Of a stretch of DNA of 64,000 nucleotides, positions 23,553-38,744 are shown in pieces (the first letter of the stretch is position 1; each line of letters opens with the position of its first letter). The notes under the pieces were generated by a model that was not told the DNA's origin, searched no databases, and worked only from the letters and a program-made list of their open reading frames with translations. Origin of the DNA: Oscillospiraceae bacterium (GTDB lineage: Bacteria; Bacillota; Clostridia; Oscillospirales; CAG-272); the NCBI GenBank assembly GCA_015063745.1, contig SVTO01000005.1, forward strand, positions 6,990 to 70,989, in the 5' to 3' direction. Made by a program: the position numbers and the translations under genes.

Positions 23553-24539
23553 TCAGGGAATATAGCTGTCCCCCTGTACCCATTTCCGGGCGTACATTTC
23601 CTTGTCAATATCATTGGCTACCTCAGTCTTCCGCCGGCTCCACAGAGGGGCAAGAAGATCCTCAGCCATACCGTCCCCCGTGATTCTGCCGATGACCGTA
23701 TCCGGCGCGAACATCCGCAGCTGACAGCAGACCAGATGGGTGTAGGCTTCCTTTTCCATGGGTACATACCCGCCCGATTCGTACAGAGATGCAAGGGATG
23801 TATCCCGCAGAACATGGAGCAGATGCAGCTTTACCATATCCGGCCGGAGGGAGGCGGTGATCCGTGCGCTTTCGAGCATATCCTCCTCTGTTTCACCGGG
23901 CAGGCCGTTGATCAGATGGACCGCGACGGAGATTTTTCCATATCCGGGTGTGGCACCGGGGGAAAGCTTTTCCGCCAGTTCCTTCAGCCGGCTGTATCCG
24001 TCCAGAAATTCCCCGAAGGTGTGACCGCGGTTGATCCTTTCCGCCGTCCTGTCGTGCGCGGACTGCAGACCAAGTTCCACCATAACGGGAATCTTCTCCG
24101 CCGTTTCGCCGATCATCTCCAGCACATCCTCCCCGAGACAGTCCGCGCGGGTACCGATCCCCAGCATCACCGCCCCGGGCAGCTCTGCCGCATCGGCAAA
24201 AGCACGGCGGATACGGGAAATGTCCCCGTATGTATTGGTACCGGACTGGAAATAGGGAATAAATCCCGCCACCTTCCATTTCCGCTCGGCCGTGGCGATT
24301 CCGTTGGCGTACTGTGCCCCGATCCCCTCGCCCACCGCACTTCTGCTGCCGTCCTTGCAGTAGATGCAGCCGCCTTTTCCTCTTGTGCCGTCCTTGTTGG
24401 GGCAGGTACAGCCGATGTCCAGAGTAACCTTGGCGCATTTCCCGCCGAAACGGGTACGTGTATAATAATCAAAGGTCTGATACCGTTTGTTTGTATCGGA
24501 ATACAGATACGGATTCTCACTCTGCTGTGACATATTCAT
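23553..24539 (-). CDS. TIGR01212 family radical SAM protein
   Basis: 328 aa; ...DIGCTCPNKDGT.GKGGCIYC... cluster, ..YFQ..TNTY.., ..HLINGLPGET. Confidence 0.85.
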   Translation of the reverse strand: MNMSQQSENPYLYSDTNKRYQTFDYYTRTRFGGKCAKVTLDIGCTCPNKDGTRGKGGCIYCKDGSRSAVGEGIGAQYANGIATAERKWKVAGFIPYFQSGTNTYGDISRIRRAFADAAELPGAVMLGIGTRADCLGEDVLEMIGETAEKIPVMVELGLQSAHDRTAERINRGHTFGEFLDGYSRLKELAEKLSPGATPGYGKISVAVHLINGLPGETEEDMLESARITASLRPDMVKLHLLHVLRDTSLASLYESGGYVPMEKEAYTHLVCCQLRMFAPDTVIGRITGDGMAEDLLAPLWSRRKTEVANDIDKEMYARKWVQGDSYIP

Positions 24540-24606: not shown

Positions 24607-25689
24607 TTACCCGACGATTGCCAGAGGGGAGGCTCTGCGGGAACCGATATACACCGCTCCCACAGGACGAATCCCGTAAACGGTGCCGATGTACATATTG
24701 GATACCGCCGCAGTCAGCATACCGGAGGTGCACCAGGGAGACACGGCACCGTTTGTTCCGTTGGCACGTACTCTGTACCATACCCCGTCCCCGTCCGCCG
24801 GCACAATGTCGGGATACTGCAGGGACGTGCCCGTGTACAGAGCGGTGAAATTCACCCCGTCGGCAGAACGCTCCAGCGTATAATCCTTCACGGGAACCAC
24901 CGGATCCTCCACTGCCGCCCAGGTGACGGTTACAGGACTGCCCGCCAGCAATGCACCCGTGCGGATGTATGCCGGCGCAAGGGGAACGGAGCCGCTGCGG
25001 GAAACCGTCTGTACCGGCGTGGTGATCTGCAGGGTGGTGACATATTTGTAATACGCACTCCCCCACTCCGCCTCGTCGAAGGTGCGGTACACCAGAACCA
25101 TGTACCACTCATACCCCACCGTATCCGCCATGGTGTACGTGCACTGCAGCTTCTTTGTGTAGGAAAGCAGTACCGTTTCCGTGAAATCCGCTTCCCCCGG
25201 CGCACGGGTGTACAGAGCCAGCCGGTATATCCCGCCGAAATGGCCTTCTTCCAGAGGGGATTCGACGACGGATACCGTGTTTTCGCAGTCCGCATACAGC
25301 ACCGGTGCAAAGGAAATCACAGGTGCTGTGTCACAGTCGGCAAAGGACAGGGTGAATCCGGTAATGGATGAGCCGGACAGCGCCAGCTTGTTGACGGGGA
25401 TAATGGGCTTTACCTCCATTCGCCTCGGCCCGTCCGGCAGATAGGGGATACGGCAGACCATGGTATCCCAGTCGTCAAGGGTCTCAAAGGTGTATGCCGT
25501 ATCGTTGTAAATACACTGCAGCAGGGTCCCGGGATCCCCCACGGCAGGATCGTCGTAGGCACCGATAACGCACAGATACTCCTCCGCACGCAGGACTGCC
25601 ACTTCAAAACCGTTGTCGTTCAGCGTGTAATCCAAGGCCGTGGTCATGGTCAGACAATGCCTGTCCGTCCTTGCATGATCCAGAATCAT
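24607..25689 (-). CDS. phage tail fibre / host-recognition protein with FN3-like C-terminal module
   Basis: 360 aa; AGGAGG SD 7 nt upstream; segment PVTVTWAAVEDPVVPVKDYTLERSADGVNFTALYTGTSLQYPD...YRVRANG resembles fibronectin type III. Confidence 0.45.
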   Translation of the reverse strand: MILDHARTDRHCLTMTTALDYTLNDNGFEVAVLRAEEYLCVIGAYDDPAVGDPGTLLQCIYNDTAYTFETLDDWDTMVCRIPYLPDGPRRMEVKPIIPVNKLALSGSSITGFTLSFADCDTAPVISFAPVLYADCENTVSVVESPLEEGHFGGIYRLALYTRAPGEADFTETVLLSYTKKLQCTYTMADTVGYEWYMVLVYRTFDEAEWGSAYYKYVTTLQITTPVQTVSRSGSVPLAPAYIRTGALLAGSPVTVTWAAVEDPVVPVKDYTLERSADGVNFTALYTGTSLQYPDIVPADGDGVWYRVRANGTNGAVSPWCTSGMLTAAVSNMYIGTVYGIRPVGAVYIGSRRASPLAIVG

Positions 25690-25701
25690 CGCATTCCCTC
25701 C

Positions 25702-26418
25702 TTATCTGTCCGCCAGCAGCAGGAAAATTTCCCCTTCCGCCAGAGAATCGGGCAGCGTGTACCCGTAGCGGATGTTGCGTACCGCGGATGCACCGGTGGT
25801 GTCGTTTGCGGCCTGCAGGATGCCGGTCATGACCCCGCCGGATTTCGGCAGAAGGTCATCGGCCGTCAGTCCGCCCACCGCACCGCTGCTTATGGCATAG
25901 GATACATTGTCCAGACTGTCCGCCGCACCCACCACGGGTCCGCAGAGGGTTTTGTCCATGCGGGTATCGGTGATCATGGCTTCCGTTACCGCTCCCGCAT
26001 CGGCGGCAAGAGTAACCTTTGCCAGCACCAGATCCCATGCTTCGCCGTCTCTTCTCGGCAGGGATGTATCATCCTCGACGGATTCCAGAGTGAAATACCC
26101 GGCGGCGGGATGGAGTCTGAGGCAGACGGTGTAGGTGTGGTCGGGAGAGAGGGGCAGAGTGGCCGCTTCCTTCAGCCACGCCATATGCCCGAGAATCCAC
26201 GCACATCCGGGAGATACCTGCAGAGAGGTCCCGTTTCCGGGAGATACGGCAAAGGCACCATCACCGGGTCGGATGATGCCGTCCGCGTAGAAACAGCGCA
26301 TCATCTGTGCGAAAAAGGCCGCATCCACCGCTTTGTTGCCCCGGGGGAATCCGTCCACGGTTTCCACAACGGATGTGGAATCGAACATGCCCCCGTTTAC
26401 TTGAATGGTTGTGTTCAT
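25702..26418 (-). CDS. phage tail/baseplate-associated protein (fibre-like)
   Basis: 238 aa; N-terminus ..GGMFDST......DRGNKAVDAAFFAQMMRCFYADGI resembles the conserved N-termini of Firmicute phage fibre/upper-baseplate proteins. Confidence 0.4.
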   Translation of the reverse strand: MNTTIQVNGGMFDSTSVVETVDGFPRGNKAVDAAFFAQMMRCFYADGIIRPGDGAFAVSPGNGTSLQVSPGCAWILGHMAWLKEAATLPLSPDHTYTVCLRLHPAAGYFTLESVEDDTSLPRRDGEAWDLVLAKVTLAADAGAVTEAMITDTRMDKTLCGPVVGAADSLDNVSYAISSGAVGGLTADDLLPKSGGVMTGILQAANDTTGASAVRNIRYGYTLPDSLAEGEIFLLLADR

Positions 26419-26433
26419 AATAAAACCTCCGTA

Positions 26434-27474
26434 TTATTTGTTCAGTTTGTCGATCAGACGGCGTATATCCCGGATCTCGTCGCCGAAGAGGGGATACAGC
26501 TGTTCCACGCCGTTTTCGTATACAATATCCAGTCCCGTCAGCTGTGTATGGGCACGCACACCCAGTACATCGGAACGGATCTCGCAGATATCTCCCAGAC
26601 CGTATCCCGTACCGTACCGGGGCTGGGCATCCCCCTCCGCTGTACAGTCCAGACGGATAAGGGGCGTGTATTCCCGGAGTATCTGCAGGCCTCTGGCGGA
26701 AAGGGCGGCGAGGTAGGCATCTCTGTCGGCGAAATCCGCTTCCTTCAGATCCGCCGCCTTACGGTATATTTCCCGTATGTCATCCCCGTCCGCGATGTTT
26801 TCCGCCGTCACCACCGTACCGTCCCCGCCTTCTATGTAAATCCGGTTGTATACATTGCCGCATTCCTTCTCAAAGGTGAGCGAGGCAATATTCCCGAATT
26901 CCTCCGAAAAAACCGCCTTCTCCGCTTCTCCGTCCCCGTCAAAGGAACGGTCAATACCCCGGATCAGCCGGAAAACCCCACGCTGAGCAGTCCCGTCATA
27001 CGTCACCGAGAAGGACATACCGTAAGGCCTCAGCATTTCGTACAGCCATTCCCCGAGAGGCTCACGGCTGCCGGAAAAGGCTGCCTCCGTATCCATTATC
27101 GGCTGCTCGGGGTCAATATCCACGGGAAGATCTCCCGCCGTGTCTCTGACCGCTTCCAGTACCGCATCGGTCAGAGAACCCGTGTACGTCACATTTCTCG
27201 GAAGCAGCCGGTCGGAGAGCAGACATTCAAGCATCCGTCCCCGCAGCTCGATCCCGTCCCCCGTAACGGAAACATATTCGATCCGTCCGCAGTGCAGTCT
27301 GTCGCACAGATACACCGCCGCAGAAGCGATCTCCGCCACCGCGCTGTCGCATCCGGGGAAGACCACCGTAAAGGTGCCGCAGGAATAATACCGCAGGGAC
27401 CAGACCACGGAAACCATGGTGTCCAGAGGCGTATTCAGTACGGCAAAATTTCTGTCGAGAAAATAAATTTCCAT
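26434..27474 (-). CDS. Siphovirus Gp37-like tail/baseplate protein
   Basis: MEIYFLDRNFAVLN..D...S..W..RYY.CG.F N-terminus is characteristic of the ReqiPepy6 Gp37-like family. Confidence 0.55.
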   Translation of the reverse strand: MEIYFLDRNFAVLNTPLDTMVSVVWSLRYYSCGTFTVVFPGCDSAVAEIASAAVYLCDRLHCGRIEYVSVTGDGIELRGRMLECLLSDRLLPRNVTYTGSLTDAVLEAVRDTAGDLPVDIDPEQPIMDTEAAFSGSREPLGEWLYEMLRPYGMSFSVTYDGTAQRGVFRLIRGIDRSFDGDGEAEKAVFSEEFGNIASLTFEKECGNVYNRIYIEGGDGTVVTAENIADGDDIREIYRKAADLKEADFADRDAYLAALSARGLQILREYTPLIRLDCTAEGDAQPRYGTGYGLGDICEIRSDVLGVRAHTQLTGLDIVYENGVEQLYPLFGDEIRDIRRLIDKLNK

Positions 27475-27483
27475 ATTTCCTCC

Positions 27484-28359
27484 TTATAAACCGAAGTATA
27501 AGGGCGTGCAGTACAGGCTGACGGAGAGAAATTCCCCGCCGCTGTCCGCCGAAACGGTGATTTTGTTTTCGCCGGGTTCCAGCAGGAAGAAATCGCTGGT
27601 GCGGTCGAATACAAAATGTCTCTCGCCGTTCAGCAGTACATTTTTGCGGCGCGGACGTGTGTCGATCTCCGCCGTGTCTCCATCCTGCAGAACGGTGAGC
27701 AGACGTATGTACCTGTCCCCGCAGGCCAGAACCGGATTTTCCACCATCCCGCCGTCTGCTGTCAGTACCGCCGTCATCCCGCAGGCCGCATCCCCCGGAT
27801 TGTACACCTCGGTCGTGTCCGTACTGCGGAGATACCCCGTGGTCATGCCGGTTTCTTCCATGAAATTCAGCGGGAAGGCCATAAGGGGCACGGTCTGACG
27901 GAAGGAAAAGGACAATTCCTCGGCATCCCGGTAGAAGGGATCGGGGGCGATGAAGGTCAGACTTACCTGCAGGGGAGAGAACAGGGTATCCTTGGCCAGC
28001 TTGGGCGTGTCGTGGGGAATGACGGTGATCAGACGGGACACGCCGTGGATTCTGATCCGCATCTCGATTTCGGAAAGGGGGTTCATAAGCCTTATGATCC
28101 GGCGTCGGATGGCGTGTTCCTCCTCAGGGGATGCGGCGTTTACCTCAGCGTGAATGGCCAGATACCGCTCCCCGAAGCGCCTGCTCACCGGATGCCCGCC
28201 GGGAAGACCCGCATATGCCTTGGTCTCCACCGAAAGCGCCGTGATGCCGAATCCCTCCAACCCCTCCTCCAGAATGTGCAGATCCGCATCCGCCGAGGAA
28301 GAAGCCGTCAGCGTCACATCCTTCCCGGACAGGCGGATCTCATAATGTGTGTTTGTCAA
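27484..28359 (-). CDS. distal tail protein (Dit, Sipho_tail-like)
   Basis: 291 aa immediately after the tape measure gene; TTG start with AGGAGG SD. Confidence 0.5.
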   Translation of the reverse strand: MTNTHYEIRLSGKDVTLTASSSADADLHILEEGLEGFGITALSVETKAYAGLPGGHPVSRRFGERYLAIHAEVNAASPEEEHAIRRRIIRLMNPLSEIEMRIRIHGVSRLITVIPHDTPKLAKDTLFSPLQVSLTFIAPDPFYRDAEELSFSFRQTVPLMAFPLNFMEETGMTTGYLRSTDTTEVYNPGDAACGMTAVLTADGGMVENPVLACGDRYIRLLTVLQDGDTAEIDTRPRRKNVLLNGERHFVFDRTSDFFLLEPGENKITVSADSGGEFLSVSLYCTPLYFGL

Positions 28360-28370
28360 AATATACCTCC

Positions 28371-29156
28371 TTAAATACGCAGCAAGGCTTCGCTTTCCCT
28401 GCGGATGGCACGGGCGGTGGCGTAGGGGGAAGTGTCGTTTTCGCGCAGGTAGATATGCTGTACCACCTGTCCGCCCGTACCTGCCCCGCTTCCTGTATTG
28501 TCCGTCAGTACACTGCGCTGACCCACACCGGCCAGAGCCTCTTCAATATACCGGCTGCCGTCGAGAATACCTTCCGCAATCCCACGGGACAGCATGACCC
28601 CCACCTCATCCTTCATCAGCTTCGAGGGAGAGGAGATTTCGTATACCTTTTTCGTCTCCGCCAGGGTCTGGGCGGAAACCGAACGTACTGCGGCGATGAT
28701 GGCCCCCGCAGAAGCCATGATGCCGGATGCGATCCCTTCGCTGATGGACGCACCCACGGAAACCCATCCGCCGGAAAAGAGATTCCGTACCCTGTCGGCG
28801 GTGGCCTGGGCGATGTGTGTCAGGGAAGCGATCCGCTCGGTGAAGCCGGATGTGATGCCCGATGCTCCGTTTCCGCCCGCACCCTGCCAGTCGGCGGATG
28901 AAAAAGCGAGAACGGCACCATGGGCGGCAGATGCACTCTGCTCATACACTCTCGCGGTCATGGTTTCCATAGCGGAAATGACGGCGGAGATGACCAGCAG
29001 CATGCCCGCATCCACCCCCGCAGAAGCAACCGCGGTCTGTACACCGGCCTGCAGTCGGGAAGACAAAGCGGAAAGCTCTGTTTCCAGCGTGCCGATCTGT
29101 GCCGTAAACTGTTCCGTATCCAGAGCGGCTTCAATGATTACCGATCCGTCTGCCAT
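28371..29156 (-). CDS. tail tape measure protein (unusually short, 261 aa)
   Basis: Position between the chaperone-like genes and Dit; Ala/Gly/Ser-rich helical sequence with ..EISSPSKLMKDEVGVMLSRGIAEGI.., typical of the TMP core. Confidence 0.6.
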   Translation of the reverse strand: MADGSVIIEAALDTEQFTAQIGTLETELSALSSRLQAGVQTAVASAGVDAGMLLVISAVISAMETMTARVYEQSASAAHGAVLAFSSADWQGAGGNGASGITSGFTERIASLTHIAQATADRVRNLFSGGWVSVGASISEGIASGIMASAGAIIAAVRSVSAQTLAETKKVYEISSPSKLMKDEVGVMLSRGIAEGILDGSRYIEEALAGVGQRSVLTDNTGSGAGTGGQVVQHIYLRENDTSPYATARAIRRESEALLRI

Positions 29157-29731
29157 ATAGATTCCTCCGTTTCTTTGTTTGTTTTCTTGGTGTTTCTGAT
29201 GCGTACCGATGCTTTGGCACGCCGTAATTTTCTGCGCGTTTCCTCATCCTTGATCCCGCTTATGTCCATGCAGCGCAGGGCGGCGGTACGCATGAAGGGA
29301 CAGTCCGGGGGCAGGGCGGTCAGCAGGGCTAAGAATTTCCACCAGTGCAGCTCACATTGGGTCAGATCCATACGGTACACCTGCAGAAAAGCCCCGTAGA
29401 TCAGGTCCCCGTCCCATACAAAATCAAACACCCCGCCTTTCGGTGCATTGCCGGAGGACGGGGCATTTTCGACGGTATCCGGGGACATCTCTCCTCTGTA
29501 AAAGGCCAGTAAGGCATCAAAGAGGCGGTGCAGATCCACATCGGGCAGCCTGTCGCCGCAGTACAGCCACAGCCCCAGCTTCATCCGGGAGAGATCGTCC
29601 AGATCCTCATCCTTCGCCAGTTCCCCGAACAGGATTCCCGTTCTGTAATCGGTACGGATGGGTATTCTGACCCCGTCCACAAATACCGCATCCGGCAGGG
29701 GATGGGTCAGAACGGAAGTGCGTCCCTTCAT
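29138..29731 (-). CDS. phage Gp15-family protein (tail assembly-associated)
   Basis: 197 aa; ..VRIPIRTDYRTGILF......D...R..L.L.L.Y resembles the Phage_Gp15 family. Confidence 0.5.
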   Translation of the reverse strand: MKGRTSVLTHPLPDAVFVDGVRIPIRTDYRTGILFGELAKDEDLDDLSRMKLGLWLYCGDRLPDVDLHRLFDALLAFYRGEMSPDTVENAPSSGNAPKGGVFDFVWDGDLIYGAFLQVYRMDLTQCELHWWKFLALLTALPPDCPFMRTAALRCMDISGIKDEETRRKLRRAKASVRIRNTKKTNKETEESIWQTDR

Positions 29732-30117
29732 GCGCCTGCTCCGTCCGCAATGGGAGAACGGCTCAGATGGATCGCCAGCGCACGTTCACGGAAACGCTGT
29801 TCCGCTTCCATACGGATGTCCACCATGGCCTGCATCTGGGCTTCCACAAAGGTGACGAAGGAGACAAAGGCTCTGGTGTGGCTTTCCGCACTTTTCAGAA
29901 GCCCGCAGATCTCCCCGGCGGATTCCTCGTCGAAGAGTACATTGAAGAAACGGCGGATGTCCTCGCACTGAGCGGCGATCTTTCCCGCAGGCGTAAGATT
30001 TTCCTCCGCCGGTTTTCTTTCCATGTGGATCAGCGCCTCCGTCAGGCGGAACATACAGCCTTCCTCGCTGATGTCAAACCAGTAATCCGTGTTGTTGTAA
30101 TGCCAGTTTTTGTTCAT
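29728..30117 (-). CDS. phage protein, tail assembly chaperone position
   Basis: 129-aa ORF between the major tail and TMP genes; ATGA overlap with the next gene. Confidence 0.4.
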   Translation of the reverse strand: MNKNWHYNNTDYWFDISEEGCMFRLTEALIHMERKPAEENLTPAGKIAAQCEDIRRFFNVLFDEESAGEICGLLKSAESHTRAFVSFVTFVEAQMQAMVDIRMEAEQRFRERALAIHLSRSPIADGAGA

Positions 30118-30190
30118 TCCATATCCTTTCCCGGCCGGGGTCTGCGGGAGAAACCCTGAAAAGCTTCTCCCGTATCCCGTACCGTATCGT

Positions 30191-30391
30191 TTAAGAAACC
30201 GTGTTTCGTTTTTCGATATCCGATTCCCACTTTTCCAGCCAGAGAAAGATCTTGGACAGGATGGACTTGAGCAGTCTGCAGAGCTGCAGGGCGAAATCCA
30301 CCCACTTCATGACCTTCCCGGCCGTGGGATTTTTATACTGTACTTCCGTTTCCTCCGCATCGGAGAAAATCATGTTGTTTTCTTCGTTCAT
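30191..30391 (-). CDS. small phage protein (66 aa)
   Basis: ATG 30391 lies 6 nt after GGAGG and 1 nt after the major tail stop: MNEENNMIFSDAEETEVQYKNP... The longer ORF-track version (to 30565) overlaps the major tail gene. Confidence 0.4.
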   Translation of the reverse strand: MNEENNMIFSDAEETEVQYKNPTAGKVMKWVDFALQLCRLLKSILSKIFLWLEKWESDIEKRNTVS

Positions 30392-30392
30392 C

Positions 30393-30881
30393 TTACGCCT
30401 CCGTGAAGGTGGAGGTGGACAGAACAAAGGTACCGGATACGCCGTCGGAAACGGACTTGAGCGTACCGGTGTAGAGCAGAGTATCCGTACCTGCGCCGCA
30501 TTCGTCGGGGATGACGGAATAGGTGCGGCGGCGTGCTCTGCAGATGCCGGATGTACCGGTTTCATCGAACAGATCCACGGTACAGATCTCCACCTGCGCC
30601 TCCTCTCCCGTGCGTTCGTAATCGGTAATGGCGCGGAGCTTCTCGATCACGGGATTGCTGCTGTATACCTCAAATTCGTAGTCGACGGTGGGCGCATAGC
30701 CGGTAACGTCCGTACGCTTGGAAGCCTCGTGGATGTAGCGTCTCTGGTAGCTTACCGCGTTCTTGGATTCGGTAAAATCCGTGAACCCTTCGCCGATGAG
30801 ACTCCATACAGGTGCGCCGGCGGTACCGATATTCATGTAATGCCGTCTGGCGGCACGGTTGACAATGGATGTTTCAGCCAT
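30393..30881 (-). CDS. major tail protein
   Basis: 162 aa; ..RHYMNIGT....W.LIGEGFTD..ES.N......RYI....K.TDVTGY resembles phi13/TP901-type major tail proteins; position fits. Confidence 0.6.
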   Translation of the reverse strand: MAETSIVNRAARRHYMNIGTAGAPVWSLIGEGFTDFTESKNAVSYQRRYIHEASKRTDVTGYAPTVDYEFEVYSSNPVIEKLRAITDYERTGEEAQVEICTVDLFDETGTSGICRARRRTYSVIPDECGAGTDTLLYTGTLKSVSDGVSGTFVLSTSTFTEA

Positions 30882-30896
30882 AATGATTCCTTTCTG

Positions 30897-31313
30897 TTAT
30901 CGTTTGGTGTCGTAAACATTGTATTCCAGTACAAAACCCGCCCGGTATTCCTCCGTTCCGTCCTCCCATACTGCGGATTTTGCCGGCAGCGTGGTCTGGG
31001 TGATCTTTGTGAATACCCTGCCGTTTTCATCCGGCGGCAGATGGTCTGCAAACCATTCGGTCAGGACATCGAACCGGCCCAGAACCGCCAGCTTGCCGAT
31101 GGGAGAGGTGCCGTCCGTGTACATGGATACCGCAAAGGGAAAACGGGCGGTGTAGGAGCCGTCTATGTATTTGCGGATCTGACGGCCGGCGGAAAGGGCG
31201 GTAATCACCCCACCCGGTACATTCCCCTCCGTTTCCGGCAGAAAATCCGACGGACGGTCTTCCCAGGTGTTGAGTAAAGTACACAATGCTTTGAGTATGC
31301 TTTTTTCTTCCAT
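30897..31313 (-). CDS. tail completion/terminator-like protein (minor capsid family)
   Basis: 138-aa ORF immediately upstream of the major tail gene. Confidence 0.45.
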   Translation of the reverse strand: MEEKSILKALCTLLNTWEDRPSDFLPETEGNVPGGVITALSAGRQIRKYIDGSYTARFPFAVSMYTDGTSPIGKLAVLGRFDVLTEWFADHLPPDENGRVFTKITQTTLPAKSAVWEDGTEEYRAGFVLEYNVYDTKR

Positions 31314-31319
31314 AAATGT

Positions 31320-31658
31320 TTATACCTCGTTTTTCGTCACAGCCCGGGCAGCCGTTTCACACCACAGCGCCAGATCCGCCGCCTTTGCCGCCTCGAACCA
31401 TCCGGCCTGCGCCAGAGGATGAACGGAGCGGGAAAAGGGACGCTTGGCGTAGTAGCATTTTCTGGCATGATCCGCCGTCCAGATTACCCCGGTGTCCGTC
31501 ACCGCACCGGAGCGGAAAAGCTCTCCCGTGCGGTAGGGAACATAGGGGGTACAGGACGTCAGAACCGCCTGACGAAGGGCCTGAGCGGCACTTTCCGCCC
31601 GGTTTGTGAGGGATGTCATGGTTCTCCCCGGCGAGAAATGTAGTCGGAAATGTACCAT
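31320..31658 (-). CDS. head-tail joining protein (Minor_capsid_2 / HK97 gp10-like)
   Basis: 112 aa; AAGGAGG SD 5 nt upstream of ATG 31658; ..VPYRTGELFRSG.. motif. Confidence 0.45.
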   Translation of the reverse strand: MVHFRLHFSPGRTMTSLTNRAESAAQALRQAVLTSCTPYVPYRTGELFRSGAVTDTGVIWTADHARKCYYAKRPFSRSVHPLAQAGWFEAAKAADLALWCETAARAVTKNEV

Positions 31659-31668
31659 AAGAACCTCC

Positions 31669-32013
31669 TTATTTCACACATTCCAGCCGATAGTGTTCCA
31701 CTCTGTCACTGCCGGTAAGAAAGGGCGTGATCTTCAGAATCTTCCAGCCATCCCGTTCGTTTTCGTCCGGATACATTCTGTCTCCGGGTACAAATCCGGC
31801 ATCGGAAAAAGCGCAGATACGGCCGGAGGCGTTTGTCAGCTTACTGAACCGCGGGAAGAAATAGACGACGGTACGGCTCTGATGATGCCCCTTTTCCGAC
31901 GCGGCGTATTCGGTGAACAGAACGACCTTATCCGCCGTGAATATGCGGTAAGCCGGGCCGAAGTTTTTGTCGTAGCCGAAAAGATGCTTGAGAATGATCC
32001 GATTCCTTTTCAT
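31669..32013 (-). CDS. head closure protein (Minor_capsid_1-like)
   Basis: 114-aa ORF in the connector module. Confidence 0.4.
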   Translation of the reverse strand: MKRNRIILKHLFGYDKNFGPAYRIFTADKVVLFTEYAASEKGHHQSRTVVYFFPRFSKLTNASGRICAFSDAGFVPGDRMYPDENERDGWKILKITPFLTGSDRVEHYRLECVK

Positions 32014-32022
32014 GATTTCACC

Positions 32023-32373
32023 TCAGATCCATTGGTTCAGCAGTCCCGCGTGGGAGAGAACCATCAGGGCTTCGGGACTGACCTCCATGCCGAGAACGGT
32101 AAGGGCAGGGGTACGGTATTCCGCACGGTAGTCCCCGATGGTTTCGGCAGCCAGTCCCGCACTGTCAGAGCATCCGGCGGTTTTGTCCGTCTGCAGACAA
32201 ACGGCACAGCGGATGGCATCGGCCTTCTGCGGATAATCCGCCGGGTGACGGGGCAGCAGAAGACAATGGATCACCGCCTGTGCTGCCTTGCGGAACTTTG
32301 CAAAATCCTCTTCGGAAAGCGCACCGCCGTATTCGTTTTTGTAATACGTATAATCCGTCACGGCGTCACCCAT
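32023..32373 (-). CDS. head-tail connector (gp6-like DNA packaging) protein
   Basis: 116-aa ORF directly after the coat gene (TAATG overlap). Confidence 0.45.
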   Translation of the reverse strand: MGDAVTDYTYYKNEYGGALSEEDFAKFRKAAQAVIHCLLLPRHPADYPQKADAIRCAVCLQTDKTAGCSDSAGLAAETIGDYRAEYRTPALTVLGMEVSPEALMVLSHAGLLNQWI

Positions 32374-33494
32374 TAACCCAGATAACGTACAGCCAGCTCG
32401 GGATAGATGGGCATAAAGCTGTAGAGCACATCCATGGAGAGAATGTCCTTCTTGCGGTTGATGTCGTAGCCGCGTACCACACGGAGGGAGATGCCGTTAT
32501 GGGTGGTCACGTAGGATTCCACACCGGCGGGAGTAGCCAGAGGACGGGATACGAAGGCAAAGGCATGGGGATGGAATACCAGGTTGGCTTCATGGCTGGG
32601 AATGAGGGTAACCGTACTTTCCAGAATAGCCAGATCCGGGATTTCAAACAGCATCAGGGAGAGGGTGTTGCCGGAGAAGGACACATCGTCCGCCACGACC
32701 ACATTGCGGGTCACGCCGTCCTTGCAGGCGCAGGACAGAATGTCACCGGGATGCACACTCTTGCCGGAAGCGGAATCGCAGGACAGGGTGATCATGTTGT
32801 CCACAATGGAACGGACGGAAATGTCGGCAGTCACTTCGGACAGGGAACCGGATTCGTGGCGGCAGACTGCCTGGCTCATGTAGTTTTCCACGCCGAATAC
32901 CTTGCCGATGGAACCGGTGCGCAGAGCCTTGGAGGAACCGCACTGATCGGCGTGCAGAAGGGCGGGGATCTGCTTCAGCTGACAGGCGGTACGGGGACTC
33001 CATACGGCGCATCTGCCTTCGGTGGGTACGCCCATGCTGTCCAGTACATAGGAAGCTTCGGCGAAATCGCTCAGGTCGGAGGGAGTGGAACCGGGGGTAC
33101 CTGCCACATTGGCAACAGCAGCATACATGGCCAGACCGTCCTTGTTGATCTGCTGTGCCAGAGCCGCGGCGGCAGGTTCCAGAAACAGTCGGGTCATATC
33201 GTCAAAGCTGCAGGCACTTTCCAGAGCGGATACTTCCACATCCACGGTGGCAATGGTGTCCAGCTTGACTTCCACGGTGTCTTCCACAACGGACTGGGGA
33301 GCGATGGATTCGTCGTTGAAGAAATGCTTGGCTTCCAGCTTGACGGGGCGGCGGATGACAACGGTGTCACCCTTCTTTGCGCTGTTGTGGTCGCCCAGAT
33401 CCTTGTAGATCAGGTTGGGGAACACCAGGTTGTCCATCAGTCTGGGCAGGGCTTCTCTGGCGATCTGCTTGGCGGAAAAAATAGAACTATTCAT
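32373..33494 (-). CDS. major capsid protein (P22 coat-like family)
   Basis: 373 aa; N-terminus ..AKQIAREALPRL.DNLVFPNLIYKD......KKGDTV.IRRP and C-terminus ..RGYDINRKKDILSMDVLYSF resemble P22_CoatProtein-family coats. Confidence 0.7.
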   Translation of the reverse strand: MNSSIFSAKQIAREALPRLMDNLVFPNLIYKDLGDHNSAKKGDTVVIRRPVKLEAKHFFNDESIAPQSVVEDTVEVKLDTIATVDVEVSALESACSFDDMTRLFLEPAAAALAQQINKDGLAMYAAVANVAGTPGSTPSDLSDFAEASYVLDSMGVPTEGRCAVWSPRTACQLKQIPALLHADQCGSSKALRTGSIGKVFGVENYMSQAVCRHESGSLSEVTADISVRSIVDNMITLSCDSASGKSVHPGDILSCACKDGVTRNVVVADDVSFSGNTLSLMLFEIPDLAILESTVTLIPSHEANLVFHPHAFAFVSRPLATPAGVESYVTTHNGISLRVVRGYDINRKKDILSMDVLYSFMPIYPELAVRYLG

Positions 33495-33532
33495 AAAAAA
33501 TCTCCTTTTCTTTTAAAAAATTACGTTTGGGA

Positions 33533-33949
33533 TCAGAAACGGCGGACGAAGCGGTAGTATTCCGCATCGGTCATGCTGTCCGGATCGGCGAAGGGTGTGC
33601 CGTGGGAAAGACCGGTGGCGGTTTTCTCTCCCTCGGCGGTGCTGTGGAACAGGTAGGGATCACTGATGCGGAGCTTGTCAAGCTGTTCCTTCAGTCCGCA
33701 GATGCCCTCTTCCCCATAGGTAATGGCGGACATATCCAGCACTTTGGCGGCAAGGGCAGGGTTTTTCGCACCCATGCGGGCCAGCGCATATTTGGTTTCA
33801 TGCTCGATCTGCATTCTGGCAAGGTCGGCGGTGTGTTTTTCTTCCATCTGACGGATCTGCTCGCGCAGGGTATCCGCTTCGGTGGGCACCTTTTCTTCCG
33901 CCGGGGGAAGTTCGGTTTCGGGGGTGTTTGTCATTTTGGTTTCATCCAT
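33533..33949 (-). CDS. capsid scaffolding protein (GP20-like)
   Basis: ~138-aa charged helical protein between portal and coat; AAGGAG SD upstream of ATG 33949 (the ORF track starts at 33976). Confidence 0.5.
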   Translation of the reverse strand: MDETKMTNTPETELPPAEEKVPTEADTLREQIRQMEEKHTADLARMQIEHETKYALARMGAKNPALAAKVLDMSAITYGEEGICGLKEQLDKLRISDPYLFHSTAEGEKTATGLSHGTPFADPDSMTDAEYYRFVRRF

Positions 33950-33985
33950 GTGCAAAATTCTCCTTTTCGTGGGCATCCGTCGGGT

Positions 33986-35356
33986 TTACGCACCGATATG
34001 CCATTTTTGTCTGTATTCTTCCTGCGTCAGAAGGCCCGCTTCCACCTCCCGCAGATCCCGGCTTCTTTCGGATTCGGAATCCACGAAATAGCTGTCGTCA
34101 TACCGTATGTGTACAGCGGACATGCTGTTCATGGGCAGGCCGAGAACGAATTCGCCCAGCCACAGTACCGGACGGATCACGGCACGCAGGAAAGCGGTCA
34201 TGTTCTGCTGATGCTTGCTCAGATTCTGGCGCATATCCTGTCTCTCTCCCATGTACTGGGTGGCGGTCAGCTGCGCCTTGCCCTGTACGCCGGAGAAGAG
34301 ATAATGCCTTGTCCCGAACCCGCAGCGGAAGGACAGGTAGTCAAGCTGTGCCTGTAGCGCATCGCGGTTTTCCTCGGAACGGAGGCTGGGATTGTGTTCG
34401 GTGATCATGGGCGTATCCGCAATATCCCCGTCGCCGATGGTCACGAACAGCTGCTGCGCCACATCGTCCGGGGTGTACAGATTGCCGTTGTCGTCCCGGT
34501 TCACGAGGGACTGGTTGATGAACACCTTTTTGCCGCCCAGCTTCAGGTCACGGCAGAAATTGTTGAACGCCAGATCCACACCCTTGAGACAGTCGATGGC
34601 ATCGGCAAAAATCGACTGACCCAGTCCGCATCCCTCGTCCACGGCGTTGTGGATATTGGGCGTCAGGATGCTGAAGAAGGGGAAGGGACAGCCGGTGCGG
34701 ATCTCCTCGGGCGGCATCCCCGGACGGCGGATTTCGGTGAGGGAACCGTCCACCTCGCCGAAGTATCGGTTGCGGATCACATAACCGTCCTCTTCCTTGG
34801 TGTGGATCTCCGCATAGAGGATCGTCTCGCCCCTGTTCCGGATTTCGGAAATAAAGGCCGCCTCCGTGATCCTGCCTTCTTCTGCGGAGATGGGGAGAAT
34901 GTGTCCCGCATCCACAAAATCGAAGGAGAGTGTCAGGGGTATTCCGGCGGCTTCGGTCAGATTCGTGCATCCCTTGGGCAGATCCCTGACACGGAGCAGA
35001 CAGGCACCGCTGCCCAGCGCAAAGGCCTTTTCCACCAGATGGTTGCATCTGCGCCAGAAATCCGTGTTGTCCAGTAAGATACCGACCCACTTTTCGGCGG
35101 CGGGATCATCGAGCTGCAGGTAGGTTTTGTCGTTGAACAGCAGGGATGCCCAGTCCTCGCACACTTTTTTGGCCATGTGCAGACGGTACATTTCCCGTTT
35201 TACCGGACGGCCGAATGCGGCGTTTTCCCAGTATTCGTGGAAGCGGTGCTCCTTCCCCTGCCACCAGCTCTGCCAGAGATCGATCATGCGGTAGATTCCC
35301 GTACCCGCCGTGCATCCGTACTGCTGACCGATCAGGTCTAAAATTTCGTTTTGCAT
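33986..35356 (-). CDS. portal protein (SPP1 Gp6-like)
   Basis: 456 aa after the large terminase; ..W..WW.G...FH.Y........R....L.MAKKVCEDWASLL.N. is typical of SPP1-type portals. Confidence 0.8.
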   Translation of the reverse strand: MQNEILDLIGQQYGCTAGTGIYRMIDLWQSWWQGKEHRFHEYWENAAFGRPVKREMYRLHMAKKVCEDWASLLFNDKTYLQLDDPAAEKWVGILLDNTDFWRRCNHLVEKAFALGSGACLLRVRDLPKGCTNLTEAAGIPLTLSFDFVDAGHILPISAEEGRITEAAFISEIRNRGETILYAEIHTKEEDGYVIRNRYFGEVDGSLTEIRRPGMPPEEIRTGCPFPFFSILTPNIHNAVDEGCGLGQSIFADAIDCLKGVDLAFNNFCRDLKLGGKKVFINQSLVNRDDNGNLYTPDDVAQQLFVTIGDGDIADTPMITEHNPSLRSEENRDALQAQLDYLSFRCGFGTRHYLFSGVQGKAQLTATQYMGERQDMRQNLSKHQQNMTAFLRAVIRPVLWLGEFVLGLPMNSMSAVHIRYDDSYFVDSESERSRDLREVEAGLLTQEEYRQKWHIGA

Positions 35357-35383
35357 AAATGTTTCCTTTCCAAAGAATTGTAA

Positions 35384-36694
35384 TCAGACTTTGCCCATAT
35401 ACCGCTCCACGGCATATTCCATAGCATCCAGAATGTCTATGTCCGAGGTAAAGTCATCCTTGCGCCGGTCCGCACCTTCCGTGTCATCCCATACCGCTTC
35501 GGCCAGACCGGCAGCCAGACGGGGACAGTCCTCCGTGAGATGGAACCGTCCCGCCGTCATCAGGCCGTTGATAAAGGCGATACGGTCGGCAATGGGACGC
35601 TTGGCGCAGTCGGTGATGATCACACCCTCCCCGTGGGGAACAGCCCGGCGGAGTCCGTTGATCAGATACTGGGCTTCGCTGTCGCAAAAAACGTAGCGGA
35701 TGGGCAGGCGGGGGAATTTGCTGCGCAGTCCGGCCAGAAAGGAGAGAAACTCCCTGTTGATGCGTCCGGGATCAATATCCCCCTTGTCCCCCTGCACCGT
35801 ATGCTCTCCGATGGCAATGACACCGCCGGACAGCGGAAAACCCATGGCGGCGAATACGGTTTTGGAGCGGTTTCCGCCGAAGTCCACGCCGATGTTGCAG
35901 AATTTCATGGGCGGCAGACCGGAGAGGGGCAGAATGAATTTCTCCGGTGCATCGGCGAAGGTGCGGTAGATCAGTCCTTCCGCGGCACAGCGCAGACCGA
36001 GTATGTCCCGGCGGTACCAGACGGAGGACTTGTCGTACTGCGCCTCGATTTCGGCAAGCCTGTCCGGCGTGATCACGGGGTTGTCCCGGATGGTAAAATG
36101 GGCGTAATTGCAGAAACCGGGATTCCCGTCGGCGGTATAGGGGTCGATATACTGCCGGTAGATGGAAGCGGAAGGGGATGTGGGATTCAAGTCCCAGAAG
36201 ATTTTCCGGCGGCGGGCGGCGAGGGTACGGTTGAAGGCCTCTTTGATGAAGCTGTCGTGATGGTGGTTGATCTCGGTGGCGATCCACATTCCGTAGGAAT
36301 TGCCGCGGATCCGTTTGCAGGCATCCGCATTTTTGCCGCCGGCGAAGATCACCGCCTTTTCACCGCTTTTCGTCTGAATACGCAGACATTCGTTATCCTT
36401 ATACCGTCCCCATGCGCACCGTCCGCGGAAGATCCGCTCAAGACCCAGACCGTTGCAGTCTCCCAGATTGAGTTTCGCATTGCCGATGGTGGCACCGGTT
36501 GCCAGATGCAGCCTGTCGGGGGCATCCTCCAGCAGAGCGGCGAAGACAAACACATTGTCCACTGTCTTCCCGGCACGCACCGCACCTTCGGCAATGTTCA
36601 CGGTACATTCCATGGCACGCCGCATATAGTCCCGGTGCTTATCCCCGAAACAGAACGGCGGCATATCCGTGTACCCTGCGCACACATCCTCCAT
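35384..36694 (-). CDS. terminase large subunit (PBSX family)
   Basis: 436 aa; Walker A-like EGAVRAGKT; ..IATEINHH.. ; C-terminal nuclease ..GVDFGGNRS......DILDAMEYA. Confidence 0.85.
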   Translation of the reverse strand: MEDVCAGYTDMPPFCFGDKHRDYMRRAMECTVNIAEGAVRAGKTVDNVFVFAALLEDAPDRLHLATGATIGNAKLNLGDCNGLGLERIFRGRCAWGRYKDNECLRIQTKSGEKAVIFAGGKNADACKRIRGNSYGMWIATEINHHHDSFIKEAFNRTLAARRRKIFWDLNPTSPSASIYRQYIDPYTADGNPGFCNYAHFTIRDNPVITPDRLAEIEAQYDKSSVWYRRDILGLRCAAEGLIYRTFADAPEKFILPLSGLPPMKFCNIGVDFGGNRSKTVFAAMGFPLSGGVIAIGEHTVQGDKGDIDPGRINREFLSFLAGLRSKFPRLPIRYVFCDSEAQYLINGLRRAVPHGEGVIITDCAKRPIADRIAFINGLMTAGRFHLTEDCPRLAAGLAEAVWDDTEGADRRKDDFTSDIDILDAMEYAVERYMGKV

Positions 36695-36722
36695 TTTTTC
36701 ACATCCTTTCCCATGATTTCAG

Positions 36723-37109
36723 TTACCCATCCTGCTCCTGACGGAATATATTTGCCCGCAGAGCCATCATTTCCGGACTGGCTTCGGCGGCGGCAAAGCC
36801 CAGCGCGGGATTGGCACGGACATCCTTCCACAGTTCAAAATAGAGCTTGATGGCCTGAATATTCCCGTCCCGCGCCAGGGTCAGCAGCTGCTGCCATATC
36901 TCCGCGGCATATATTCCCGCATATTCCCTGGCCAGCTGCACGACCGCGGATCCGAACGCCGCATCCCGCAGCCACGCAAGCATATCCGTTTCGGATACAT
37001 CGGTCTGTGAGAGGGCGCCCGCGATCTGTTCCCCTGCCGTCAGTCCGCCGAAGCTGTTTTTGACGACGGCATTGGCGGTGTCGATTTGTTTTTCCGTCGT
37101 ATCGCTCAC
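36723..37109 (-). CDS. putative terminase small subunit / HTH DNA-packaging protein (start uncertain)
   Basis: C-terminus ..LARDGNIQAIKLYFELW.. is typical of small terminase/phBC6A51-type HTH proteins. GTG 37109 abuts the GGAGG with no spacer. The upstream ATG 37262 would run through a terminator and a promoter. Confidence 0.45.
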   Translation of the reverse strand: MSDTTEKQIDTANAVVKNSFGGLTAGEQIAGALSQTDVSETDMLAWLRDAAFGSAVVQLAREYAGIYAAEIWQQLLTLARDGNIQAIKLYFELWKDVRANPALGFAAAEASPEMMALRANIFRQEQDG

Positions 37110-37125
37110 CTCCTTTCGTGAAACC

Positions 37126-37155
37126 AGTATACCACAGCGAACATTTGTTTGTCGT
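37126..37155 (-). promoter_or_regulatory. candidate late promoter (extended -10, weak -35)
   Basis: Minus strand acGACA-18 nt-TGgTATACT, ~15 nt upstream of the GAAAGGAGG SD of the small-terminase-like gene. Confidence 0.4.
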
Positions 37156-37235
37156 CCCGTGATTATGGCGGAGGAATGGGGAGAAAGTTGCAGAAAAGTG
37201 GCAGAAAAGGGATGGAAAAATCCACATAATCCCGT

Positions 37236-37282
37236 AAAAACAAAAAACAGCAGGGGATGCATGGTAAAACATCCGCTGCTGT
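37236..37282 (-). terminator. intrinsic terminator between the regulator and the structural operon
   Basis: Minus strand ACAGCAG(C)GGAT-loop-ATCC(C)CTGCTGT followed by TTTTTTGTTTTT. Confidence 0.65.
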
Positions 37283-37307
37283 GGGGGAAAGGGGAGGATG
37301 GGAGGGA

Positions 37308-37696
37308 TCAGGTATTTCTGCCGAAGAGTGCGAGGGTAAAGCGTTCATAGGCTCTGCGTCGGATGCGGTAGAAGGAGCTGCGTTCGACGTGGAGTTCTTC
37401 GCAGAGGTCATCGATACTGACGCGGGAAGATTTAGCGGCGTAAGCGGTAAGGATGGCTTTTTCATCGGGGTCGAGGGTAGCGAGGGCAAACTCAAGGGCA
37501 CGCACTTTTTTGGCAAGTTTCGCACGATTCTCCGCGGCGGTTTCGTTTTCTTCTTCCCAGTCATTCCGCAGAGCGTTTCTGAGGTAGGGTAATTCCTTCA
37601 GCAGAGAGACCGCCTGTTTCTGGAGGGAGCTATTCTGATCTGTTTTTCGGGTTTTCAGGTTTTTTTTGTTACGTTTGTTCTAATGGTGGGACTCAT
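37308..37696 (-). CDS. ArpU/RinA-like (sigma region-4-like) phage late transcriptional activator, interrupted at an A8 tract
   Basis: ATG 37696 (AAAGGA SD at 9 nt) opens a 13-codon frame that ends at TGA just after A8 (37660-37667). The -1 frame is open from there to 37308. It encodes ..LQKQAVSLLKELPYLRNALRN...LDPDEKAILTAYAAKSSRVSIDDLCEELHVERSSFYRIRRRAYERF. Its only canonical in-frame start is GTG 37505 (65 aa). Confidence 0.55.
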
Positions 37697-37740
37697 CTGC
37701 CATTATCCTTTCTTTTGTATTCTTTTCTTTTTTATACTAC

Positions 37741-37754
37741 AGAACATATGTTCT
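37741..37754. promoter_or_regulatory. LexA (Cheo/SOS) box 2, overlapping the predicted transcription start
   Basis: AGAACATATGTTCT, a perfect palindrome with the Firmicute core GAAC-N4-GTTC. Confidence 0.6.
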
Positions 37755-37762
37755 TGTTCTAT

Positions 37763-37791
37763 AGTATAGCACATGGGGATTCTTTTGTCAA
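37763..37791 (-). promoter_or_regulatory. sigma-A promoter of the phage-cluster regulator gene
   Basis: Minus strand TTGACA-17 nt-TATACT. Confidence 0.65.
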
Positions 37792-37797
37792 TACAAA

Positions 37798-37811
37798 AGA
37801 ACAAATGTTCC
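37798..37811. promoter_or_regulatory. LexA (Cheo/SOS) box 1, 6 nt upstream of the -35
   Basis: Minus strand GGAACATTTGTTCT (GAAC-N4-GTTC). Confidence 0.55.
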
Positions 37812-37827
37812 TTTTGGTTTTTCTACG

Positions 37828-37985
37828 GATGGGAGGACTAAATCGCTATTTTCTTTTTTGTCCTTGGCGGACGGATATTCTTTTACTACTCGATGAGTCG
37901 TGCTATCGTACGTTTTTGGTGTCCTGTGCGGACGGCACTTAGAGAGGCCTGCCAAAGCGAGGCCCCTCTAAGAACTCCCCCGCTT
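37828..37985. repeat. left arm of a ~158-bp inverted repeat
   Basis: By hand alignment ~93% identical to the reverse complement of 38549-38706. Contains an internal hairpin TTAGAGAGGCC..GGCCCCTCTAA and the direct repeat GTCCnnnGCGGACGG x2. Confidence 0.85.
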
Positions 37986-38548
37986 TATTAAGAGCTACGT
38001 TGGTACTGTATTGGTTGTTGGATTGGTCAAAGTAGTGGAGGATGCAAATCAGCGCTGACCGCGGTAGGGGTGCATTAGTGGAGGCATACTGTTGGGATAA
38101 GGTATGTATTAGCCGTGTACAGTGATGTGGACTGGGTGCGGTCTCATCCGTGCTAACCGCGCGAAGACTGAATGGCAGTCCTAAGACATGGCGGTCAGCC
38201 GGAATTTTTAATGCACCCAACCTTGTACTGTAGGCGAACCCACTCTTAGTTTGCACAACCTGTCAGCGGTCAAACTCCCCTATTCATCCCGCGGTCAGCA
38301 CAGATAATCCTTTACTCCACTAATTAACCCAACAAACCCACACCCAACAACCTCTCCCTTTACACCAAGCGGTAGCGTAATCCTTCCTGCACGGCACTTC
38401 GTTCTGTGCACAGACCCACTATCAAACCCAACCAACCGTCAACGGTATACCAAAACCCCTGCACCCTTCGGCGGTTAGCCATAATTGAAAAACGAGATTC
38501 CCAAACCCAAAGAAACAGCAAACCCGAACCAAGAAAACCCTTGCACCT

Positions 38549-38706: not shown

Positions 38707-38744
38707 CTGTGGAGAGAAAAATAAAACGAACCCCCGTAACCCCC

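Follow-up and report, generated by a model that had tools for sequence, protein, structure and literature searches.

The 64,000-nucleotide stretch of Oscillospiraceae bacterium contig SVTO01000005.1 analysed here (the window, 64 kb) carries on its minus strand, between positions 24607 and 37810, one co-oriented operon of phage head and tail genes of ~13 kb, as judged from the list of its open reading frames (ORFs) and from profile searches. We think that this cluster is probably a domesticated, siphovirus-derived particle locus, a member of a large, vertically inherited family of the Oscillospirales type, and most likely similar to a gene transfer agent (GTA). A first-pass annotation of the sequence had proposed a candidate GTA-like particle locus or a domesticated prophage; our computational tests support the proposal and favour domestication. 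The host is an uncultured Clostridia bacterium from gut or rumen. To our knowledge, GTAs are well understood only in Alphaproteobacteria.

Functions were assigned to the ORFs by PHROGs, Pfam and NCBIfam profile searches (Table 1), and Shine-Dalgarno sequences of the type GGAGG or AAGGA precede nearly all starts in the cluster. On one side a radical SAM gene lies 67 bp from the stop codon of the fibre gene, and on the other the cluster is bordered by a PfkB kinase gene. Elsewhere in the window, the scanned ORFs belong to the core genome (rpoA, the aro operon, GroEL, Asd, MgtE, DivIVA, RluD and an amino-acid ABC transporter); ~10 of the scanned ORFs had no Pfam match, and several of these are probably wrong-strand calls. 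Among the ORFs scanned in the window we recognised no integrase, replication, holin or endolysin gene, and the profile searches detected no sheath, repressor, holin or endolysin family among the cluster ORFs. A tRNA scan and an Rfam search (gathering thresholds for the whole window, E-value mode for 37000-38900) gave no match, hence there is no tRNA-type integration site, nor a known RNA in the inverted-repeat element described below. The longest k-mer shared between the two borders had a length of 9, compared with 9.06 in shuffled sequences, which is the level expected by chance for an att-like direct repeat. The GC content of the cluster is 0.568 versus 0.523 in the remainder of the window (GC at third codon positions, 0.685 versus 0.648), and its codon usage is host-like, with a correlation of relative synonymous codon usage with host genes of 0.97. 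The profile searches thus bear out what the first-pass annotation had said about a co-oriented cluster of head and tail genes only, about the gene assignments from an ArpU/RinA-like regulator through two fibre-like proteins (with corrections), and about the flanking radical SAM and sugar kinase genes; its strong Shine-Dalgarno sequences and its lack of integrase, replication and lysis genes and of flanking direct repeats were likewise confirmed.

The portal has more than 1000 homologues, and 80 loci came up when one genome per species was scanned. The compact layout is shared by more than 50 non-redundant loci in metagenome-assembled genomes (MAGs) of the Oscillospiraceae/Ruminococcaceae type, and the cluster of this species itself is seen in at least four independent assemblies. 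About 40 further loci with portals 51-61% identical have the full gene order, terS through the second fibre gene, and are equally compact. Family contigs of 53-159 kb have housekeeping genes on both sides of the cluster; the upstream flanks hold PHP, EamA, MatE and DUF1934 genes, and downstream there are, depending on the locus, genes for UvrA, DctM, ValRS, thioredoxin reductase, a helicase or a conserved membrane protein. Within 8 kb upstream of terS at 15 family loci, the 25 most frequent of 61 Pfam families are all cellular; the same interval at 11 phage-like loci, with portals 41-47% identical, contains SSB, RecT, Sak, RusA, primases, helicases, methylases and Terminase_2. These phage-like relatives have a gp7-like minor head protein after the portal and tape measure ORFs of 500-836 aa. 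In the IMG/VR database, portal matches of at least 51% identity are all on uncultivated virus genomes (UViGs) of at most 14.2 kb, those of at most 47% identity include genomes of 25-45 kb, and the closest portal from a deposited phage shares 38.6% identity. Members of the family (labelled L092-L109; L-numbers denote relative loci or contigs in this analysis) are entered in IMG/VR as viral genomes in their own right, 4-14 kb long, a filing that is probably wrong given their chromosomal context.

Temperate siphophages of Clostridia, for example IMG/VR UViGs of 30-45 kb, a prophage region of Mogibacterium pumilum (L077) and Acutalibacter phage Fontainebleau, encode homologues of TerL, portal, scaffold, major capsid protein and Gp15 with 23-57% identity. 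They differ from the family in having replication and recombination modules, a Terminase_2-type TerS, the gp7-like minor head protein, the long tape measure of 500-836 aa, and essentially no LexA boxes at the terminase promoter. The cluster could nonetheless be the morphogenesis module of a prophage or satellite, a split or helper-dependent selfish element with its integration, replication and lysis modules elsewhere and particles that would mainly take up the genome of the element. The lysis genes must indeed be elsewhere, the helix-turn-helix (HTH) domain of TerS could recognise a pac site, the position of the cluster differs between lineages, and the site is empty in distant relatives; a 2026 preprint adds that compact clusters of this kind can resemble capsid-forming satellites. 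However, neither integrase, excisionase nor primase/replicase genes nor att repeats were found at the family loci examined, long contigs included, and the divergence of the cluster tracks that of neighbouring housekeeping genes. The capsid-forming satellites known to us carry int and rep genes and no tail genes, which weakens this explanation for a locus that lacks int and rep genes and att repeats and has a complete tail module. We consider a split element quite improbable.

Vertical inheritance is clearest in the sister species. L004, a MAG from roe-deer rectum, carries a true orthologue in which the same 19 genes stand between pfkB (91% identical) and the radical SAM gene (86%), and L178, a longer contig of the L004 species, runs on into the same downstream genes as the window. 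Every cluster gene is intact in L004/L178, with gene lengths within a few residues. Between the window and L004, the ratio of non-synonymous to synonymous substitution rates (dN/dS) was 0.06-0.30 in all 17 genes for which dS could be estimated; dS of the regulator gene was saturated. The dS values of the cluster (0.57-2.35, median ~0.85) resemble those of the flanking kinase (1.19) and radical SAM (0.95) genes, which argues that the cluster diverged together with its neighbours and under purifying selection. Synteny in related genomes and purifying selection had both been set out as checks in the first-pass annotation, and both hold for this pair. The counter-evidence named in the same annotation included inactivating mutations in several structural genes, of which we found none, and an empty site in close relatives; the empty sites that turned up are in relatives too distant to count as close.

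Across the family, a PHP-EamA-(MatE)-DUF1934 block adjoins the cluster or its regulator in at least 10 lineages, and in the window only 6 kb separate this block from the last fibre gene. The identity of structural proteins tracked the identity of the neighbouring PHP protein at 12 loci (Pearson 0.81, Spearman 0.50, for pairs that are not independent). By these genomic comparisons the cluster appears to be long resident in one chromosomal neighbourhood, with local rearrangements. A metagenome scan with the radical SAM protein returned 8 short, distant contigs. Two of these, from distant relatives in the human gut (radical SAM 67-70%, kinase 60%), have pfkB and the radical SAM gene side by side without the cluster, from which it follows that the position is specific to certain lineages and that there was at least one relocation or late acquisition in the lineage of the window. 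The empty-site segments (L180, 972-3312; L185, 1419-3534) consist of pfkB, a small tautomerase-like gene and the radical SAM gene.

The sequence GAAC-N4-GTTC is the LexA operator consensus of B. subtilis and clostridia (PMC4234289). It occurs exactly only twice in the window, and the two predicted boxes bracket the regulator promoter P_reg. P_reg is conserved in L004 and L091; an equivalent of box 1 is present in L004, and the position of box 2 is filled by GAACGGATGTTC in L004 and by GAACATATGTTC in L091. Other sub-lineages have the first box exactly between the -35 and -10 elements of P_reg and the second ~12 bp downstream. Many family members, such a sub-lineage among them, also contain a gene for a zinc-ribbon protein of 60-74 aa (CxxC...CPxC) between the LexA-box promoter and the regulator gene (L084, 2688-2912, minus strand; L086, 5791-5973, minus strand; L031; L033-L037), which is missing in the window, L004 and L091.

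The terS promoter, P_terS, holds in its spacer a LexA-like box with one mismatch, AAACAAATGTTC (37139-37150). Its layout recurs throughout the family: paired short direct repeats, GGGA(C/T)GACA as a weak -35 element, a box in the spacer, and TATACT or TATAAT. The direct repeats upstream of P_terS, which are conserved in L004 and have counterparts in paired (T)GGAAAA repeats at the same place in other family members, are a candidate activator site. An exact box is present in the terS-promoter zone of 13 of 38 non-redundant family loci versus 1 of 55 loci with portals below 50% identity, and within family loci the density of boxes is 0.65 per kb in this zone versus 0.042 per kb elsewhere, a ~15-fold difference. 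The predicted boxes at P_reg and P_terS overlap or adjoin the promoter, as do the GAAC-N4-GTT(C/T) operators of Firmicute LexA regulons. To judge from the positions of the boxes, the locus is apparently switched on through the host DNA-damage repressor LexA; a CI/Cro-type repressor is absent, suggesting that the host repressor took the place of the phage one. We found no LexA box upstream of the neighbouring uvrA gene in L175, which may be transcribed from further upstream. Our search for published descriptions of this cluster family, or of LexA operators on a clostridial GTA-like locus, returned none, and the LexA boxes on the regulator and terS promoters are a new element of this locus family.

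The regulator gene had been listed among the ORFs in the first-pass annotation, and this has to be corrected, for its reading frame is interrupted at a run of eight A residues (A8, 37660-37667). A first ORF of 13 codons (MSPTIRTNVTKKT*) extends from the ATG at 37696 to the TGA at 37655, and the conserved remainder continues in the -1 frame to 37308. Relative to the sister lineages L004 and L091, in which the gene is intact, the break is a deletion of 1 nt in the A8 run. The run is identical in three other metagenome assemblies, hence the frameshift is no sequencing slip. The sequence A_AAA_AAA_A followed by a stop codon is a plausible site of -1 ribosomal or transcriptional slippage, in which case the frameshift may be programmed or tolerated; a recent inactivating mutation, with the gene a young pseudogene, is the simpler reading.

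The non-coding inverted-repeat element noted earlier, which proved real, is inserted next to the regulator promoter, with the first LexA box on one side and the PfkB gene on the other. L004 lacks it in the orthologous intergenic region, and the window has a single copy. That contig L001 ends within the element points to further copies in the genome. It resembles a miniature inverted-repeat transposable element or a remnant of an insertion sequence, and an invertible or RNA-encoding element is also possible.

A deletion fixed in all assemblies of this species and an 873-bp insertion beside the regulator promoter are what one would see if the cluster were an inert remnant, a grounded prophage fragment before its decay with the frameshifted regulator as the onset. 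Against this, all 18 other ORFs are full-length compared with the sister species, at a dS of ~0.6-1.4, and have the low dN/dS values given above (0.06-0.30), and the N-terminal part of the regulator downstream of the shift is still conserved at the protein level. Gene set, gene lengths and promoters moreover persist over the more than 50 non-redundant loci, the proteins of which are only ~50-60% identical. An inert remnant is accordingly the least probable of the alternatives considered here, and we hold it to be very unlikely.

The tail genes point to a further trend within the family. The tape measure protein has 259-263 aa in most lineages (among them L084, L175, L176 and L178), ~130 aa in L005/L177 (L177, 7391-7801; L005, 15880-16240), and is replaced by a 48-aa ORF in L086/L020 (L086, 14862-15008). 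These lengths of 260, ~130 and ~48 aa appear to form a natural series of tail reduction across the family. The ~130-aa version of L005/L177 keeps the same C-terminal motif, PY.TAR....SE.LLR; the L086/L020 lineage lacks a Gp15 gene as well and has a fused or enlarged tube gene (283 aa).

On these grounds we propose the following working model. In an undamaged cell, host LexA would occupy the two operators that bracket the strong P_reg as well as the operator in the spacer of the weak P_terS. Upon DNA damage, RecA-stimulated self-cleavage of LexA would allow the ArpU/RinA-like activator to be made, and this would drive the 12-kb structural operon by acting at the GGGAYGACA element and the direct repeats that precede terS, by analogy with late control by RinA and ArpU. 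Cleavage of LexA would thus free both the activator and the operon that the activator drives, as in a feed-forward switch. TerS and TerL would then fill small heads of the P22-coat type by a headful mechanism, presumably with chromosomal DNA, because the locus cannot excise or replicate. A short tail, ~40 nm in length if the 261-aa tape measure spans ~0.15 nm per residue, would be added together with Dit, the Gp37-like tip and two fibre or receptor-binding proteins (RBPs), and release of the particles would need lysis genes located elsewhere in the genome. In the genome studied here, readthrough into the activator would require a -1 shift at A_AAA_AAA_A, so that the locus would either be expressed in few cells by slippage or be currently switched off.

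GTA-type packaging of host DNA fragments of 4.6-8.9 kb has been described in Ruminococcaceae, Oscillospiraceae and Christensenellaceae by nanopore sequencing of DNA from faecal virus-like particles (PMC12946183). In that study a GTA gene cluster, FpGTA, was identified in Faecalibacterium only and in none of the other MAGs examined there, and consists of a 10.5-kb head operon and a 5.5-kb baseplate/fibre/lysis operon (PMC12946183). The first-pass statement that Clostridia hold no characterised equivalent is therefore dated by FpGTA, published in 2026 (PMC12946183), which belongs to a different structural lineage. Both systems have an Oscillospirales host, a compact chromosomal operon of ~10 kb for head and packaging proteins (TerS, TerL, portal, scaffold, major capsid protein), no integrase or replication genes, and lysis genes outside the main operon; FpGTA is near-ubiquitous in its host clade. 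They differ in the major capsid protein, which is annotated as N4-gp56 in FpGTA and is of P22 type here, a comparison made by published annotation and NCBIfam scoring. FpGTA particles look podovirus-like or tail-less, whereas the present cluster has a full siphovirus tail gene set, with tail tube, tape measure, Dit, tip and fibres in the head operon and not, as the FpGTA baseplate, fibre, holin and endolysin genes, in a second locus. TerS of FpGTA, like that of RcGTA, is described as lacking a DNA-binding domain; TerS here has an HTH domain. The word LexA does not occur in the text of the FpGTA paper (PMC12946183). A 2026 preprint describes comparable compact candidates in Coprocola and Butyricicoccaceae.

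The family shares with RcGTA a set of head, connector and short-tail genes of ~13-15 kb in phage order, the lack of integration, replication and lysis genes in the cluster, vertical inheritance under purifying selection, a short tape measure, and host regulators in charge, which is here predicted from the LexA boxes. RcGTA has an HK97-type major capsid protein with a prohead protease and no separate scaffold, and its control runs through CckA-ChpT-CtrA, GafA and quorum sensing, LexA having only an indirect part. The present locus differs in its P22-type coat and scaffold, its ArpU-like activator and its predicted LexA operators directly on promoters. The locus family would be a domestication independent of RcGTA, in a different phylum.

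With PBSX of Bacillus subtilis the locus has in common a Firmicute host and a related terminase family. PBSX particles are SOS-inducible and carry in their heads pieces of host DNA shorter than the element, which is ~28 kb, myovirus-like with a contractile tail, has its own Xre repressor and lysis genes, and serves as a killer particle. The locus described here is half the size and siphovirus-like, and a sheath, an Xre-type repressor or a lysis cassette was not detected among its ORFs. It could still encode a bacteriocin of this sort, that is, SOS-induced particles that adsorb to related competitors and kill them, the DNA in the head being an undelivered by-product. Bacteriocins and PBSX are typically under LexA/SOS control. 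The TerL of the cluster comes closest to the PBSX-family model, at a sub-threshold score, and fibre B evolves fastest, as expected of a specificity determinant. A killer-particle role is also raised for FpGTA by the authors who described it (PMC12946183). However, the tail encoded here would be non-contractile and very short, without a sheath or an identifiable membrane- or wall-damaging domain, and the full packaging machine (TerS, TerL, portal, adaptor, stopper) is under purifying selection although killing alone would not need it. F-type tailocins have dispensed with heads altogether, which weakens a tailocin reading of a cluster in which TerS, TerL, portal, scaffold and major capsid protein are present and under selection. 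A killer particle is, in our view, unlikely, if less so than the other alternatives.

GTA particles are defined by packaging more or less random host DNA in pieces shorter than their own locus, which here spans 12.7-13.2 kb. Of the two readings left, a GTA-type and a PBSX-type particle, we favour the GTA-like one, because the whole packaging machine is conserved and because the tail is reduced rather than elaborated across the family. It agrees with the lack of excision, integration and replication genes of its own among the ORFs scanned in the window and the family flanks, and with vertical inheritance under purifying selection with at least one relocation. Several observations weigh against it: TerS retains its HTH domain, unlike the TerS of RcGTA and FpGTA; neither the window nor any of the flanks examined yielded lysis genes; the regulator gene is frameshifted in this genome; the site of the cluster is not fixed across the family, the pfkB-radical SAM site of distant relatives being uninterrupted; and all hosts are MAGs, which leaves room for binning or assembly artefacts.

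In gut Clostridia, GTA-type packaging is reported as the commonest route of bacterial DNA into capsids, and FpGTA is the sole cluster pinned down (PMC12946183). If our reading is true, the loci described here would be a second cluster family, unrelated to FpGTA and seemingly much more widespread, and would offer concrete, testable loci through which genes may flow among Firmicutes of rumen and gut, and link the SOS response directly to DNA donation. The family would be an independent domestication with its own regulatory wiring; it can be recognised by the 238-aa fibre marker, the fixed tape measure of ~260 aa and the predicted LexA and ArpU-like switch, and its three tape measure lengths would offer a natural series of tail shortening. 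More tentatively, an ancient and independent siphovirus domestication may have given rise to a LexA-operated GTA family that couples DNA damage to the donation of chromosomal DNA, and may supply the missing clusters behind GTA-type packaging in gut and rumen Oscillospiraceae, Ruminococcaceae and Christensenellaceae outside Faecalibacterium, with the A8 run as a slippage throttle that limits production to rare cells; this larger scenario is possible, but we would not yet call it probable.

Table 1. Features of the particle cluster and its borders, with positions in the window and the evidence for each.
Feature	Position	Strand	Evidence and remarks
PfkB kinase gene	38827-39858		border
Inverted-repeat element, non-coding, 873 bp	37831-38703		155-nt terminal inverted repeats, 92% complementary; 563-nt centre
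LexA (Cheo/SOS) box 1, GAACAAATGTTC, predicted	37799-37810		exact match; 8 bp upstream of -35 of P_reg
P_reg, TTGACA-17-TG-n-TATACT	37763-37791	-	best sigma-70-type match in 24-39 kb, 11/12, extended -10
LexA box 2, GAACATATGTTC, predicted	37742-37753		exact match; ~10 bp downstream of P_reg -10
ArpU/RinA-like late activator, interrupted	37308-37696	-	phrog_36/248, DUF1492, TIGR01637 ArpU 33 bits (below cutoff)
Direct repeats, CTTTTCTGC x2 and degenerate third	37180-37210	-	11-nt spacing; upstream of P_terS
P_terS, weak -35 ACGACA, 18-nt spacer, TG-n-TATACT	37126-37155	-	promoter match
Small terminase-like protein (TerS), HTH domain	36723-37109	-	PF13022 31.8 bits, phrog_24579; dN/dS 0.14
Large terminase (TerL)	35384-36694	-	phrog_2 1.8e-28, Terminase_6N, TIGR01547 PBSX family 72.6 bits (sub-threshold); dN/dS 0.12
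Portal, SPP1/A118 type	33986-35356	-	phrog_533 4e-79, PF05133; dN/dS 0.16
Scaffolding protein, 138-147 aa	33533-33976	-	PF06810 9e-17
Major capsid protein, P22-coat type	32373-33494	-	PF11651 6e-38 (131 bits), phrog_283 4e-70
Head-tail adaptor	32023-32373	-	phrog_541 7e-15
Connector-position protein, without family match	31669-32013	-	position; ORF kept in L004/L178 (56% identity, dN/dS 0.28)
Minor_capsid_2 / head-closure-type protein	31320-31658	-	PF11114 3e-12, phrog_556
Tail completion protein	30897-31313	-	phrog_913 and phrog_3266, weak
Major tail (tube) protein, 162 aa	30393-30881	-	phrog_3099 3e-48; PDB 11ok_A 'Phage tail tube protein' 5e-14; dN/dS 0.06
66-aa ORF, lineage-specific	30191-30391	-	called in L001 and L178; absent from L084, L175, L176
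Tail assembly chaperone-position protein, DUF6673-like	29728-30117	-	phrog_4450; PF20378 weak here, clear in L175/L176
Phage_Gp15 protein, second chaperone position	29138-29731	-	PF06854 4e-33
Short tape measure protein, 261 aa	28371-29156	-	aligns only to C-terminal ~200 aa of 1100-1680-aa tape measure PHROGs
Distal tail protein (Dit)	27484-28359	-	phrog_33, PF22768
Sipho_Gp37-like tail-tip protein	26434-27474	-	PF14594 8e-26, phrog_538
Fibre/RBP-like protein A, 238 aa, family marker	25702-26418	-	85 homologue clusters only, nearly all 217-257 aa
Fibre-like protein B, C-terminal Ig/FN3 (Hoc-like) domain	24607-25689	-	phrog_10993 7e-14 on residues 234-327
Radical SAM gene	23553-24539		border
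GH67N/DUF4838 glycoside hydrolase gene	21209-23413	+	between radical SAM gene and next conserved genes

Some of the assignments in Table 1 need comment. The start codon of TerS is uncertain, the sole canonical start in frame being the GTG at 37109. The coat protein matches gp8 of PDB entry 8zdh and gp5 of P22, and scored 19.5 bits on the N4-gp56 model TIGR04387, for which the cutoff is 60. The 66-aa ORF was considered as a holin and rejected, since evidence was lacking and most family members do not have it. The AlphaFold 2 model of fibre A is partly confident (pLDDT 69.5), with a confident beta core; this core (residues 45-160) resembles the shoulder domains of RBPs from the lactococcal phages p2 and 1358 and SPP1 gp22 in Foldseek searches, in which the matches were consistent but weak (best E = 3e-3). 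The modelled fold lends weak support to a tail-fibre or RBP role for fibre A. Fibre B is the fastest-evolving gene of the cluster, with 55% identity to L004 and a dN/dS of 0.25.

Three loci with portals 42-43% identical (L080, L082 and L083) share Dit, Gp37, fibre A and a tape measure slot of ~300 aa, and their upstream flanks are non-phage, with a conserved beta-lactamase-domain protein. They may represent a second, more divergent compact subfamily. The glycoside hydrolase gene beside the radical SAM gene is missing from the same position in the sister species (L178), indicating a lineage-specific insertion beside the cluster. One or two genes for Barstar, the barnase inhibitor, lie directly 3' of the cluster in L086 (18804-19472), L005, L009 and L011.

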